Source: Octopus vulgaris (Eukaryota). From it: a DNA stretch of 64,000 nucleotides. The stretch's first letter is position 1, and each line of letters opens with the position of its first letter. The notes under the pieces are model-generated. The model ran no database searches and was not told the DNA's origin. It saw only the letters and a list, made by a program, of their open reading frames with translations. The translations under genes were made by a program, and so were the position numbers. Positions 233-47,140 of the stretch are shown piece by piece. The stretch spans positions 36,518,001-36,582,000 of the forward strand of contig OX597836.1 of the NCBI GenBank assembly GCA_951406725.2, in the 5' to 3' direction.

Positions 233-777
233 ACACGCTTAGAACTTGACATTCTGTTATTCTATCGAATTTCAGAAACTAGCACTGCATCATATTCATA
301 TTCTCATCATTTTGAATACAAGAGAGAAAAAAATTTCTAGTGACTGCACTGAAATTCAAAAATATGTGCTTGCAGAGACTTCAAAATGAAGCAACGTAAA
401 AACAAAATCAAAGGAAAACAAATGAGAGACCAAAAAAAAATACTAAAAACGGAAATGAAAAATTCATAGAAACTGTGTTGAGGCAAATATCATTGTATTT
501 TGTTTGAACAGTAATGAATGGAGGAAAGAAATTCTATACAACTTCAGATTTGACAACAGCGAATATAGAGTGACAAAGACTCTGTAGAAGAAATTATGGT
601 GAAAGTAATCGGATTGATAATAACATTTTACCAAAGCAAAAAATATACAACGACTTAGATTGGACTGCCACAAACACATCGATTCTGCAGTGTAGTTTTC
701 CTTAAAAGCCATGTAACACGTACATTATTTACATTATTTACATTCGACGGATATTTGTCCTCGTCTTGTTTGTTGTT

Positions 778-823
778 AACCCAACGTTTCGGCTGATATA
801 CCCTCCAGCCTTCTTCAGGTGTC
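778..823 (-). ncRNA. Minimal type I hammerhead ribozyme motif
   Basis: Minus strand reads gacac-CTGAAGA-a-ggctg(10 nt)cagcc-GAAA-CGTT-gggtt; one mismatch in stem I. Confidence 0.75.
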
Positions 824-878
824 ATGGGGAAATTTCGAGAAATTTCGAACCTGGGTTCTCATTCGAAATTTCCCCCAT

Positions 879-926
879 GACACCCGAAGAAGGCTTGGAG
901 GGTATAATCAGCCGAAACGTTGTGTT
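879..926 (+). ncRNA. Hammerhead motif with mutated core (CCGAAGA)
   Basis: gacac-CCGAAGA-a-ggct..agcc-GAAA-CGTT-gtgtt. Confidence 0.6.
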
Positions 927-1182
927 AATAAAAAACAAGTTGAGGACAAATATCCGTCGAATGTAAATAATGTAAATAATGTACATAATACCTCAACTCT
1001 TAAATATAGAACTGTATCCATGTAACATATTTTACATTTCTTGCATAAATAATAAATACTGCGCTTAAACACTAATACAAGTATGGGTGATTCTTTTATG
1101 CAGTACATGAATATTTGTCATTTTAAGTAGAAAAGTAATGGTTTTCTCGCTGTAGAAATATTTGAATCACTATTACGATATA

Positions 1183-1394
1183 GAGGATGTGCTGAAAATT
1201 TCCTGGTGTAAAGGGTATGGGGAAAAGCCTGGCTCGAGGCTCAACCTTCTGAGTTATTTTACAAGGCTGAGAAAATCTTAAGGACTGCTGCAATAAGGGC
1301 GTGAATCTGAGAGGGGAATATGTTGAATAAAATTATAATTACCTCAACGTCCTGTTAGTTTCCTTTAACCAAAATCAGGAGGTTTTTCAGCAAC
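1183..1394 (+). mobile_element. Short non-autonomous mariner derivative
   Basis: Degenerate TIRs (gtgctgaaaa..cctgg / caggag..ttttcagca) and a transposase C-terminal remnant VNLRGEYVE*; second copy at 3470-3685. Confidence 0.65.
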
Positions 1395-1640
1395 AGTCGG
1401 GGACTAGTCTACTAAGATGAATCTTTAAGAAACAAATGATTCTCTGATTAACTTCAATGAAACGCCAATGACTTCTTTGAAATGGTTACGATGTTCTAGA
1501 GCAAAGTATAATCAAGAAACTGAAGCCATTCGGAGAGAAATTTCCCTTCAGAACAACGACAGTGGATATTAGATATTGTTGAAATATAAAATGTTTTCTG
1601 TTCAAACAACTATATTGAGCATATTATGTTTGCACTTGTG

Positions 1641-1968
1641 AAGGCGCTTGGCTCAGTGATTAGAGCATCGAGCTTATGATTGTGAGGTTGTGAGTTCGAT
1701 TCCCGGACCGGGCTGCCTGTTGTGTTCTTGAGCAAGACACTTTATTTCATGTTGCTCCAGTTAACTCAGCTGCAGAAATGAGTTGCAACATCACTGGTGC
1801 CAAGCTGTATCGGCCCCTTTGCCTTTTCCTTGGATAAAATCAGTGGTGTGGAAAGGTGAGGCTGGTATGCATGGGCGCATACCATAAACAACCTTGCCCG
1901 GACTTGTACTTCGGAGGGTAACTTTCTGGGTGCAATCCCATGGCCATTCATGACGAAAGGGGGTCTCC
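1641..1968 (+). mobile_element. tRNA-derived SINE (family D)
   Basis: A box TGGCTCAGTGA, B box AGTTCGATTC, central TTGAGCAAGACACTT; a related 3' fragment lies on the minus strand at about 16625-16835. Confidence 0.85.
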
Positions 1969-2935
1969 ACAAAAATGTATGATACGTTACATGTCCCTTA
2001 TTTCTAGTACGTCTACAACATCAATTTACTTTCGATTCTGATATTGGGCCATTTTAAAAAACCCAAATCAAAACATATCTTCTTACGTTATGGCGTAAAC
2101 GAAATAAGGGTTGTTTTTCTTTTTTGTCATTTTGTATTTATACGTCACGGTTTCATTTACCTTTATATTCTTGACAAAAGTGTAGCAACATAAAAACAGA
2201 GAACACAGAGAGAGGATCAAAAATAATCTCTCTAATATATGCAGTAAACCGAGGTATTTTACTTCAGTTTAGGATCATCGTATGCAAAAATAGATAGAAA
2301 GCTTTGGAAATGTTCGCATTTATGACAATCGTGTTCACAGTACACAGAAAGCAGCACTTGCAGATTTGCTGAATAATGATGAGAAATTGGTAATGCATAT
2401 AGGAATCTATTGAAGTTAGAAATTCTCACGAACTTGGAATTGTATCCATTATATACGCTCTTTGTACCCCAAGCGGCATTTTGAGCAGTAATTCATAAAG
2501 AATGTTATAGTAGGGCCTAAAATAACTTAAGAAGTTCGCAGCATTGCGTTGTATAATATTGAACAAATAATTATTATTCATGACTATCCTGTTACGATAT
2601 ATGATTACCTGAATTTATGTCAGCCTTTAATAATGACACCTATGCAGTTCAAATGTAGAAAGCTTCAGATATTGGCTTTAAAATATCAAATGTGCATTAA
2701 CTGCAGAATCTCACCATAGACCCCATCGTAGATAGAAACGATAGAGAACATAGTTTCTTATTAATTGGTGGCTATGGAACTTAGAATGAAACATATGTAC
2801 AGCTCACTTTTTTGGGGAATATTTCATAGTTTGTGTAGAAAAAAATATGTAACTTTATGCATTGCATGTTCATGTTGATAATTTCATCAGGGCTGGTTGA
2901 ACGGTTCACATGATGGTTTTCTCGCTGTAGCAATA

Positions 2936-44404: not shown

Positions 44405-44714
44405 TAAAGGAACGATGCAATAAGCGTGTGAATTTGAGAGTGGGATATGTGAATAAATAATTAACTGATCCTCCTGTGTTTTCTCTTCCCCAAAGCCAAA
44501 AGGTTTTCATCACAAATATATATATATATATATATATATATATATATATATATATATACATACACACATTTACACACGCGAAAACACATACACATTTAGG
44601 AATTTGTGCTGAAAACCTTTTGGTTTTGGGGAAGAGAAAACACAGGAGGATCAGTTAATTATTTATTCACATATCCCACTCTCAAATTCACACACTTATT
44701 GCATCGTTCCTTTA
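44405..44714. repeat. Inverted repeat with arms of about 112 bp around a (TA)n spacer
   Basis: 44405-44517 is the reverse complement of 44602-44714 with about 3 mismatches. Confidence 0.93.
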
Positions 44715-44969
44715 GTTTATTTAAGCCATGTAAAAGAACTCTGAAGGTTGGGCGTGTATATATATATATATATATATATATATATATATATATATATATA
44801 TATATATATATATATAGATAGATAGATAGATAGATAGATAGATAGATAGATAGATAGATAGATAGATAGATAGATAGATAGATAGATAGATAATAGATAG
44901 GTAGATAGATAGATATATGTATGTATATATGTATGTATGTATGCATGTATATGTGGACAGGACACTTCA

Positions 44970-45115
44970 TAAAAACAAGAAGAAAGCATCTTGAAAGCCA
45001 GATCTTTTTTAGATTACTGCATGAAACTTGCTAAGAAATTCCGCAAGAGAATATTCGCTATCTTATAGGGTCCTCGCATTAAAAAATGCTAAGGTCATGT
45101 CTACTAAATATTAAA
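44970..45115 (+). mobile_element. Tc1 C-terminal fragment related to 28330-29690
   Basis: actgcatgaaacttg..gaaattccgcaagagaatattcg shared with 29539-29580. Confidence 0.75.
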
Positions 45116-45219
45116 TATTCATATTGTAACAATTAATAAGTAATTTAAATGTATAATTTCAGATTTAAATTAGCTTTAATGATTGTAAGGTTGTCGATTT
45201 ACTTCTGCGTGTCTGCACT

Positions 45220-45585
45220 CACATACACACACACACACACACATACATATATATATATATATATATAGAGAGAGAGAGAGAGAAATAGATAGATAGATAG
45301 ATAGATAGATAGATAGATAGATAGATAGATAAAGAGACAGTCAGACAGACAGACAGATAGGTAGGTAGGTAGGTAGGTAGATAGATAGATAGATAGATAG
45401 ATAGATATATAGATAAATAGATAGATAGATAGATAGATAGATAGTTAGATAAAAAATAAATAGATAGATAGATAGATAGATAAATAAATAAATAAATAGA
45501 TAGATAGATAGATAGATAGATAGATAGATAGATAGATAGAGAGAGAGAGAGATAGATAGATAGATATATTGATTGATTGATTGAT
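45220..45585. repeat. Compound (CA)n(TA)n(GA)n(GATA)n microsatellite
   Basis: Direct reading. Confidence 0.95.
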
Positions 45586-46407
45586 GTTGTAAATGCGTCA
45601 GACAATACTGAGACAGTGTATCTAAGTTTAAAATTTCACCTCGGTTTATGTGATCGCACGAGGTGATCGAAGGGAGAAATACGTTGACTCGTGTTATGAA
45701 ATCGAGCTTAATTTTGCACGAGTCACCACTCTTTACAGATGAAGTACGTTCGAGTTTTGAGGTTATTGATGCCTTCATACAGCCTAGTGTTGCGTAGAAG
45801 CTCGAATGCCAATTCGTCGTATTTATTATATTTACCATAGAAATATCTCTCTTTGTCTGAATGTAGTATTATATAAGAGTCTCTAAACGTAGAATGATTA
45901 AAGAAAGAATGATTAAATAAAGCTAATTTACTTAAATTGAATGTATCTGATTGGATATTATCGCAACACCAAAGAAAACTTTTGATAATCCCACAGAATA
46001 TTTCACAAAGAAATCCGCTATCAACATATTTTCTCCATACATTTTTTAGATATTGGAACGACACCAAATAATATTGTAATTATTAGTTTATATCATTTGC
46101 ATTGTTTTGGATGTAAAAATATTGAAAATATCTATCTATCTATCTATCTATCTATCTATCTATCTATCTATCTATCTATCTATCTATCTATCTATCTATC
46201 TATCTATCTCCCTTTCTCTCTCTCTCCTTCTCTCTCTGTCCCTGTTTCCCATGGGTTATAGGGGTTCTGTGAAGATTCATTGCCACTGCTTCCTCACTTG
46301 ATAAGTGTATTTGTTTCTCTCTCTCTCTCTCTTTGTTAATCTCTACACACCAAGCGCGCTTACCTCCACACGCATGTATATATACACATACATACAAACA
46401 TATATGT

Positions 46408-46710
46408 ATTCTTTTACTTGTTTCAGTCATTTGACTGCAGCCATACTGGAGCACTGCCTTTAGTCGAACAAATTGGAGCCAGAACTTATTCTTTGTAAGA
46501 TTAGTACTTATTCTATCGGTCTGTTTTGCCGAACATTTACGGGGACGTGAACACACCAATGTTGATTGTCAAGCGATTAGACACACACGCACAAATATAT
46601 ACACACACACACAAACACACGCATATATAAATAGATAGATATATACGACGTGCTTCTTTCTGTTTCCGACTGAACTCGGAATCATGTGGTTAGGAAGCAA
46701 ACTGCGCCTC
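46408..46710 (-). mobile_element. Diverged, internally deleted SINE family A
   Basis: Homology to family A. Confidence 0.82.
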
Positions 46711-46828
46711 ATACATACGTATATATATATATATATATATATATATATATATATATATATATATATATATATATATATATATACATATATACATATATAT
46801 ATATATATATATATATATATATATATAA

Positions 46829-47140
46829 CGGGAAGCTTTATGAAAATAAACAAAAGACGAAGGCAGGTGGAAAACAAACGAACAATTGTATTAGTATGGC
46901 GCTCAGGAAATATAAATAAAACAAGTCTTTAACGTTTCGAGCCTACGCTCTTCAACAGAAAGATACACAGAGAGAGAAAAACACAGAAAGAAGGAGAGAA
47001 AAAAATGCGTGCAGTAGCTAACGAATCAACATGGCGATCTGATTTCGGCCAGAGGTCAAAGATCAAACATGAGACGCGAGAGCGAAATAAGGGGAGATAA
47101 TAGGGTTGATAAAAGGGTTGAGGGACCAGCTAATAGTGCG
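46829..47140 (-). mobile_element. Penelope-like terminal fragment abutting (TA)n
   Basis: Contains a hammerhead motif; tail motif gtatt..tgg.gctcaggaaa shared with 32972-33066. Confidence 0.72.
46926..46963 (-). ncRNA. Compact hammerhead motif with variant core CUGUUGA
   Basis: tcttt-CTGTTGA-a-gagc-gtag-gctc-GAAA-CGTT-aaaga; stems I and II perfect. Confidence 0.7.

Follow-up and report, generated by a model that had tools for sequence, protein, structure and literature searches.

Minimal hammerhead motifs of several repeat families in a 64-kb window, one family carrying U at core position 6

Six repeat types in the window, the whole 64-kb stretch of DNA analysed here, carry hammerhead-shaped motifs. 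In one of them, the high-copy family F, core position 6 is U in almost every aligned copy. The preferred reading, given a probability of about 0.6, is that the motifs are minimal type I hammerheads, likely 3' ends left by several families of truncated Penelope-like insertion, and that F is probably a slow, protein-assisted dimer ribozyme. The observations behind it are the motifs themselves and their frequency above chance expectation, the inverted arms of families A and E, and a family-level U6 accompanied by free N7 and H17. The motifs are mostly ordinary; the fixed U6 in F is the one unusual result.

Results

The six motifs reported in the sequence-only reading were all found at the places and with the stem III words given for them; those at 778, 9869, 29868 and 46926 lie on the minus strand and those at 24362 and 36611 on the plus strand. 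The order ascribed to them (stem I, core, stem II, GAAA, palindromic stem III, stem I) fitted the sites in pattern scans, and all sites follow the published consensus order of minimal hammerheads (core, G-started stem II, GAAA, palindrome, H; PMC4209133 Fig S3 text). Four further copies that had escaped that reading, each with core, GAAA and palindrome, lie at 884(+), 2985(-), 3040(+) and 37992(-), and a half-replaced remnant motif lies at 4563(-). Type I order, stems I and II, GAAA, a palindromic 15.2-16.2 or stem III, and H17 are present in A, C, D, E1 and F, and the type I order is present at B only under a descriptor tailored to that site. The canonical CUGANGA core occurs in the left arms of A and in B, C, D and E, an extra base follows A9 in A, B, C and F, and every copy within the window has a flaw. 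Family status in the sense of many genomic copies is shown for F; A and E have local copies only, and B and C each occur once in the window. The family-level contig alignment covered F only among the six types.

Motif frequency exceeded that of shuffled sequence, a refutation test set beforehand, under both of two descriptors that were composed after the sites had been viewed. A strict descriptor gave five matches in the window (four in family A, one in F) against shuffle means of 0.13-0.16, and none of the shuffles, 100 of each of two kinds, reached five. Under a looser, energy-scored descriptor, six exact-core matches were obtained against a mean of 0.135 and a maximum of 2 in 200 block shuffles; since A818/A2985 and E1/E2 are duplicates, these represent four independent types. 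When up to one core mismatch was allowed, there were 10 matches (shuffle mean 2.2, maximum 6), including one at 911(-) that was dropped as chance-level; the core-plus-palindrome matches at 23232(-) and 2890(-), which have no stems, were also dropped. By itself, the F motif would turn up on average 0.3 times in a shuffled window, and it is established only through family-level alignment. Site C had no comparable match in 200 shuffles, and site B (9905), which failed both general descriptors on account of a weak stem II and a bulge before the core, passed its tailored descriptor, which none of 500 shuffles matched. Monomer folding energies were no better than those of shuffles at 8/8 sites (z -1.2 to +0.35). 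The Rfam hammerhead models gave no match at gathering score; there was none at F, none among 38 matches at A, and none among the 150 of 292 matches listed. Rfam miRNA matches were dismissed as microsatellite or hairpin noise.

Family A is represented by two inverted pairs and a 3' end. A1 (720..984) is a head-to-head inverted pair with arms 87.5% alike, in which the left-arm hammerhead (777..824, minus) has an intact CUGAAGA core and one stem I mismatch, and the right-arm hammerhead (878..927, plus) has a U4C core change, an intact stem I and two single-base insertions in stem-loop II. An extension of ~30 nt on the right arm only (985..1014, plus) is likely the 'tail' of Penelope elements (PMC8557442, PMC11167929). 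A candidate 10-nt target-site duplication flanks the pair (left copy 709..718 (+), right copy 1018-1027); its word occurs twice in the window, and 54/20,000 random flank pairs share such a word. A2 (2936..3152), which is 91% alike to A1 and has the same junction and U4C change, carries hammerheads at 2944-2991(-) and 3034-3082(+) and sits within a local duplication. A3 (4465..4569, minus) is a family A 3' end whose remnant motif has a deviant stem II and lacks 3 nt at the cut site. Family A thereby shows both an inverted 5'-truncated arm and a one-sided 30-nt tail, plus a 10-nt flanking repeat. Its stem II word had no match in metagenome, genome or viral collections, and a protein-level search with a spurious reading frame of the family returned one, uninformative match.

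The inverted pair of family E (36442..36745) consists of a truncated inverted arm (36442-36546) and a main arm that shares its 3' end and carries the E1 hammerhead (36611-36674, plus) with a 12-nt palindrome; no tail was seen. E2 (37942..38109, minus), an inverted partial copy of E that is 84.5% alike and inserted in another repeat, terminates at the predicted cut site and has no stem I 3' strand. The insertion anatomy of A and E matches that described in the Fig 2 legend of PMC8557442, and neither an inverted 5'-truncated arm nor a one-sided tail was seen at B, C, D or F. B (9869..9912, minus) has an exact core, the palindrome AUAU, a 6-bp stem I one base out of register and a weak stem II, and is probably a decayed hammerhead. 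C (24362..24449, plus) is a decayed hammerhead whose stem II is structured and 57 nt long; its stem III is ACG-GG-CGU, and its cut site lies 38 nt from a (TA)n array. D (29868..29935, minus) has an 8-nt palindrome and lies within a short insertion between (TA)n arrays; its 3' tail has three copies, near 5382, 20570 and 53347. Targeting of (TA)n was considered and found weak, as 2/7 sites meet post hoc distance cut-offs and a third misses by 38 nt.

The Penelope-like assignment made in the sequence-only reading holds for motif architecture and for the way in which A and E are inserted, though the scans turned up no Penelope ORF: none of the 33 ORFs of at least 120 aa in the window combines RT with GIY-YIG. 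No Pfam family was detected in 9/9 frames upstream of A3, C and F; these are short fragments, and transposase pieces in visible decay likewise escaped the scan. A suspected likeness between the stretch upstream of C and a GIY-YIG C-terminus found no support. No pair of direct pseudo-LTR repeats flanking an ORF is present in the window, as expected for truncated copies. None of 114 TRF rows covers a motif, and arrays with periods of 184 nt and 294 nt contain none, so the suggestion that the motifs are retrozyme-like was not sustained. ARAGORN found no tRNA genes; it would miss decayed SINE heads, and all carriers may be 5'-truncated.

The family F motif (46926..46963, minus) lies in a high-copy repeat (46830..47243, minus) between two (TA)n arrays. 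Its core in the window is CUGUUGA, with C3 at 46958, U6 at 46955, N7 at 46954, an extra A at 46951 and H17 at 46931; stem II occupies 46950-46939 and the palindrome ACGU 46935-46932. Copies were aligned from contigs of four public runs (X1, X6, X13 and X21) with three organism labels and 2,789-13,638 contigs each, and all 29 bins of 46830-47195 were covered in X1, X6 and X21. Canonical A6 accounts for <5% of depth in 4/4 runs, position 46955 having no variant row at the 5% threshold. At the level of these contig sequences, the CUGUUGA core at 46926 is a family feature and not decay of the local copy, and the family core is CUGUNGA. Conservation of the core across genomic copies, which had been proposed as a check, is thus borne out for F; a core variant had also been noted, but its family-level fixation at 46926 was overlooked.

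N7 takes all four letters (G 9/15/25/8%, C 17/19/13/15% and A 18/22/3/22% in X1/X6/X13/X21), and H17 is A, U or C (A 87/68/38/70%, C 1/1/11/0.2%) with no row for G; C17 is itself rare, so G17 at <5% is weak evidence for the NUH rule. Variant rows occur at only 4/36 positions in 46927-46962, with more than one alternative letter only at N7 and H17, and no indel rows occur across 46914-46997. The F core is not wholly invariant, since U4 is replaced by A in 9.5% of depth in X13. Depth at 46954 is 65-74% of that at 46947, and up to one third of stem II records are therefore silent on position 6. Depth in X13 is 1.9-4.5 million across 46921-46959, compared with no more than 5,528 across 46830-46920 and 0 across 47038-47141, and loose ends at 46923 and 46961-46962 reveal another set of flanks; with the most distant organism label, the motif is the only part of the repeat that is shared. 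Run X21 was set aside as expression evidence, its RNA nature being only guessed.

In structure predictions, the G5-C15.2 pair of the F monomer has a probability of 0.44-0.98 with U6 and 0.00-0.09 with A6, and U6 is predicted to favour an inactive rod. A 'U6 lock' was rejected as a general mechanism, being strong only with U7 (2.4 kcal/mol, against 0.2 with A7 or C7), and the A6/C7 variant has a predicted misfold of its own. For all 8 variants, two monomers (-16.8 to -21.6 kcal/mol) are more stable than the modelled F dimer (-15.9 kcal/mol). A U6 pattern search returned 16 metagenome loci, 6 genome loci and no viral locus. Four of the 22 (L007, L010, L011 and L015) complete a hammerhead beyond the pattern's demands, and in L007 and L015 the U6 copy adjoins an A6 sister copy; these four were not counted as U6 families elsewhere, as they may be decayed copies picked by the pattern, and an apparent covariation of A6-U9a versus U6-A9a among the loci is confounded by it. 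A protein-level check of U6 through spurious reading frames gave no match.

Discussion

Chance matching in AT-rich repeat DNA is a very remote explanation of the motifs. The post hoc descriptors, the empty Rfam hammerhead result and folding z-scores near 0 are in keeping with it, but it is opposed by six exact-core matches where 0.135 are expected, the family-level pattern at F and the insertion anatomy at A and E, and it is largely refuted for A, C, D, E and F, B being the weakest site. It is also unlikely that the carriers are non-autonomous elements, either tandem retrozymes or SINE-like, with a borrowed Penelope-type 3' end. No ORF adjoins any motif, F is very abundant with an upstream part that looks non-coding, and retrozymes derive from pseudo-LTRs (bioRxiv 2026.07.22.740005), all of which would suit such elements; against them stand the lack of any motif in a tandem array, the missing tRNA (though decayed SINE heads would escape detection) and ragged, inverted 5' ends that resemble truncated Penelope-like copies.

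If the motifs are truncated Penelope-like insertions, other elements of this kind suggest that the hammerhead would lie within the pseudo-LTR, palindrome pairing between the two copies of a tandem transcript would rebuild stem III, folding would be aided by the element's protein, and cleavage after H17 would trim the precursor. Reverse transcription would then begin ~100 nt downstream and often yield 5'-truncated and inverted copies. An anole element offers a precedent for cleavage that is protein-assisted and non-essential (PMC11167929). In F, U6 may have had a single origin, after which later master copies would have kept altering N7 and H17 while retaining the rest of the core; such a pattern would mean that hammerhead-like constraint persisted in a U6 background. 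The copies in the window are probably inert passengers. It had been suggested that some are still active in transcripts crossing the region, which is unlikely for A and E1, whose copies, in structure predictions, pair with the adjoining inverted arms and so lie buried in long hairpins.

We tentatively propose, as a possibility well short of even odds, that F is a putative active natural CUGUNGA hammerhead, maintained by selection in several related species, where few ribozyme motifs would be more abundant, yet invisible to CUGA-based searches and Rfam, with U6 acting as a brake lifted by dimerisation, the element's protein or Mn2+. Doubtful, but a serious competitor, is the idea that F is a dead or near-dead hammerhead with a founder U6, its fold either serving the element's protein as a signal for binding or folding or just riding along. 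A full pairwise scan of one hammerhead gave low activity for every single or double change within the CUGA turn apart from a C3-G8 swap (PMC9901934); in the anole element, catalytic mutants do not impair insertion in vitro and no RNA ends are found at the cut site (PMC11167929); Naiads spread without canonical hammerheads (PMC8557442); and the predicted rod points the same way. A dead core sits poorly, however, with N7 and H17, both left free by catalysis, being the only multi-allelic motif sites, and with a motif common to copies with unlike flanks and to three organism labels. That the fixed U6 is an artefact of aligning to one copy, with A6 sister families clipped or below 80% likeness, is improbable. 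Depth falls by ~30% between 46947 and 46954, 547 further loose-end rows exist beyond the 24 listed, and L007 and L015 pair U6 with A6 copies. Single mismatches at the neighbouring 46954 were nevertheless aligned at 42-57% of depth, so that an A6/U7 copy, also one mismatch, would have shown up; none of the 24 loose-end rows listed falls at 46953-46955, and U6 would still be the majority if all missing depth were A6.

Position-6 changes usually cripple hammerhead activity, and hammerhead descriptors treat A6 as invariant. A high-copy animal family fixed for U6 is a natural test of whether Penelope-type hammerheads need to cleave: a cleaving F would call for revision of the core rule and of genome-wide counts, and with an inactive F, a family would have spread widely with a dead core yet a retained fold, which would support a non-catalytic role. 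If cleaving, F would be a new natural ribozyme variant; literature searches, whose coverage omitted some key papers, found no published natural A6U hammerhead, and the only natural position-6 change found in print was a single phage A6C.

Several decayed hammerhead families within one window are ordinary. The set had been called diverse and poorly catalogued, and several families are indeed seen, but several per animal genome is the published norm (PMC4209133), with 16 in a coral (PMC7229834). The minimal hammerheads of metazoan Penelope-like elements (Cervera and De la Pena 2014, PMC4209133) share with those in the window the type I order, a 3-5 bp stem I, an extra base after A9, a G10.1 stem II, a palindrome replacing stem III, the occurrence of several families in one genome, a prevalence of single truncated copies, and pairs on opposite strands. 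Unlike them, the motifs in the window show no ORF link, and A6 is present in 56/56 motifs of PMC4209133 Fig S3, where the descriptor required the core, against U6 in F; none of those motifs is from a cephalopod, and the core variant there is U3-A8. Non-LTR retrozymes (PMC7229834; bioRxiv 2026.07.22.740005) also place type I hammerheads in non-coding animal repeats, but there the units, each a few hundred bases long and carrying a hammerhead, are arrayed in tandem, whereas the motifs in the window are never tandem. PAc, the Poseidon element of the green anole (PMC11167929), serves as a model for AT-rich targets, for the tail of 30-40 nt and for the hammerhead in the pseudo-LTR. The PAc hammerhead has been assayed together with the protein of the element, and the PAc ORF begins at stem II, whereas no ORF follows F. 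The closest parallel to U6 is the natural A6C hammerhead of phage Bcep176 (PMC3088659, PMC7151607), which like F has a position-6 change in an otherwise complete core and which cleaves slowly in Mg2+ yet is active in Mn2+ (PMC7151607); it is an assayed C6 motif at one phage locus, whereas F is a U6 motif of a high-copy animal repeat, known from sequence alone.

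Hammerhead motifs in the window

The sequence-only reading claimed at least six minimal hammerhead families, and all six motif types (A to F) were found at its positions, 778, 9869, 24362, 29868, 36611 and 46926. Their frequency, which that reading proposed to compare with shuffled sequence, lies above the shuffle level with both a strict and an energy-scored descriptor, each designed post hoc when the sites were already known. The strict type I descriptor detects five sites (818-, 884+, 2985-, 3040+ and 46958-) against a shuffle mean of 0.13-0.16, and five sites were reached in 0/200 shuffles. 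The energy-scored descriptor detects six exact-core sites (two of A, C, D and two of E), which amount to four independent types once duplicates are collapsed, whereas 200 block shuffles give a mean of 0.135 and at most 2; when one core mismatch is tolerated, 10 sites are detected against a mean of 2.2 (200 block shuffles). B is matched only by a tailored descriptor, which matches 0/500 shuffles, and F by itself has an expectation of 0.3 per shuffled window. At 8/8 sites the monomer fold does not exceed the shuffles in stability, as expected where a motif lacks a stable stem III. As originally worded, the finding is real and ordinary. Up to about 9,000 motifs and eight families have been reported from one genome (PMC4209133).

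A family-level core variant at site F

The core of F (46926-46963(-), verified base by base) reads CUGUUGA, with U at position 6 where the canonical residue is A. Contig records from four of 24 listed public runs, all of them contigs, were compared with 46830-47195 at 80% likeness, with differences reported from 5%: 12,757 records aligned from X1 (organism A), 13,638 from X6 (organism C), 5,555 from X13 (organism E) and 2,789 from X21 (organism A, guessed to be RNA). Position 6 (46955) has no difference row in any of the four, and so every non-U letter, including the canonical A, stays below 5% of depth in each run. N7 (46954) varies in X1, X6, X13 and X21 (G 9, 15, 25 and 8%; C 17, 19, 13 and 15%; A 18, 22, 3 and 22%), as does H17 (46931), the residue preceding the predicted cut (A 87, 68, 38 and 70%; C 1, 1, 11 and 0.2%), with no G row. 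Across the 36 positions 46927-46962, the only other rows are at 46947 in stem II, where a variant of up to 6% retains a wobble pair, and at 46957, where U4 changes to A at 9.5% of depth in X13 alone, adding a second change to a core that already has U6. N7 and H17 alone are multi-allelic; by hand arithmetic this would happen by chance once in 630, or once in 30 when all seven nominally free positions are counted.

Depth in X13 is 1.9-4.5 million over the motif versus at most 5,528 over 46830-46920, where summed depth is not copy number and indicates only a very abundant repeat. The X13 loose ends, among those listed, include a second set of flanks, and so the motif is common to subfamilies with differing flanks. 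If an A6 sister family differed by two adjacent mismatches and also had unlike flanks, the alignment could have clipped it, and coverage at 46954 reaches 65-74% of the value at 46947. An A6/U7 copy carries one mismatch and would have shown up. One of the six motifs, F, is a core variant at the family level, with no printed record found: the literature searches turned up no report of a natural A6U core or of hammerheads in cephalopods, as judged from listings, with most subscription papers and figures outside the search. Among the Fig S3 motifs of PMC4209133, A6 is present in 56/56 and none is from a cephalopod, and "ribozyme" and "hammerhead" have no occurrences in the accessible text of the octopus repeat annotation PMC13282606.

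A search of three collections for the U6 pattern returned 22 loci, of which 18 have an incomplete motif. The remaining four, all in AT-rich, non-coding metagenome contigs, also possess a complete stem I, the palindrome and H, which the pattern did not require; elements of this kind thus occur in other hosts as well. All four are minimal hammerheads: L010 (2468-2494), L011 (3368-3395), L007 (2146-2475), an inverted pair, and L015 (42-168 and 1017-1142), a direct repeat. In both L007 and L015 a U6 copy is accompanied by an A6 sister copy in the same contig, and the four loci do not show that U6 families exist elsewhere.

Proposed function of F

We infer each functional step of the preferred reading, to which a probability of about 0.6 is given as a whole: F would be a slow ribozyme that works with assistance and remains under selection. 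Position 6 matters, as seen from the low activity of CUGA-turn mutants in a pairwise scan (PMC9901934) and the kinetics of the natural A6C hammerhead of phage Bcep176, which is slow in Mg2+ but attains a rate of 0.3 per minute in Mn2+ (PMC7151607). In the F monomer, U6 is predicted to allow pairing between the core and the palindrome, at a probability of 0.44-0.98 compared with at most 0.09 for A6; the predicted gain is 2.4 kcal/mol when N7 is U and 0.2 when it is A or C. The main rival, a dead core with a conserved fold, is judged less likely. In 8/8 variants tried, the modelled F dimer has lower stability than a pair of monomers. Under the published model, minimal motifs do not cleave as monomers and have weak activity as dimers (PMC4209133).

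Local copies and their setting

Every local copy departs from the standard motif at least once: the left copy of A, C, D and E1 carry a stem I mismatch, the right copy of A carries U4C, B has a weak stem II, E2 misses a stem I strand, and F has U6. A (TA)n array lies 3' of the cut site in C (38 nt), D (135 nt) and F (105 nt), and the association is weak, since only D and F passed two-sided (TA)n cut-offs.

Family A forms a head-to-head inverted pair (720-984) with arms 87.5% alike, the right arm being ~30 nt longer, and a 10-nt word stands on both sides of the unit, at 709 and 1018; such a word is common to 54/20,000 random flank pairs. A second pair (2936-3152), which has the same junction and U4C change, sits inside a local duplication and so is not an independent insertion. 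The duplications around it (1142-1549 / 3429-3836 and 2617-2939 / 3154-3451) are 87-90% alike. In family E, an inverted, truncated arm (36442-36546) has the same 3' end point as the main arm. The A and E pairs are predicted to form long hairpins (-184 and -121 kcal/mol), which would bury the A motifs together with the 3' half of E1. If transcribed, the inverted pairs at 720-984, 2943-3083 and 36442-36745 would produce extended RNA duplexes, of about 130 bp in the first A pair, that could serve as editing or small-RNA substrates. The second E copy, E2 (37942-38109), stops where the hammerhead is predicted to cut and takes the place of ~20 nt of another repeat; both of its junctions have short overlaps, and no duplication flanks it. 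It is therefore likely to be a local templated copy, with templated DNA repair more likely than insertion of cleaved RNA.

At 34% GC, the window is AT-rich DNA of animal type, with repeat types that look octopus-like, 114 tandem-repeat rows, no tRNA genes and no Rfam matches at gathering score, and no tandem array contains a hammerhead motif. A long MITE-like hairpin enclosing a (TA)n array (44461-44659) has the top, yet sub-threshold, Rfam score among the matches listed, and a short run of TTAGGG-like repeats is internal to the window (12810-12859). Decayed, frameshifted pieces at ~10500-11250(+) and 28300-29640(+), the latter containing a 294-nt tandem duplication, resemble mariner-type and Tc1-type transposases in their motifs; a Pfam search of them returned nothing relevant. 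A 161-aa open frame (21456-21941(-)), similar to the C-terminal region of CR1-type LINE proteins, matched no Pfam families. No Penelope ORF is present among the window's 33 ORFs of at least 120 aa, and no Pfam family was found in nine frames upstream of 3/7 insertions (the A remnant A3, C and F), a scan that is insensitive here, as it also missed the transposase-like pieces.

Comparison with known elements

By its anatomy, F is a putative Penelope-type minimal hammerhead, one that fails the canonical-core test. The inverted arm and one-sided ~30-nt tail of family A, and the inverted truncated arm of family E, resemble Penelope-like elements, in which inverted copies truncated at the 5' end, and a tail of 30-40 nt on one side only, have been described (PMC8557442; PMC11167929). 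The hammerhead of the anole element cuts only with its own protein, and insertion in vitro proceeds without cutting (PMC11167929). In D (29930-29921(-)), an AUG opens stem II immediately after the core, in a frame that ends after three codons in the window copy; this position is the same as in the anole element, whose ORF begins there.
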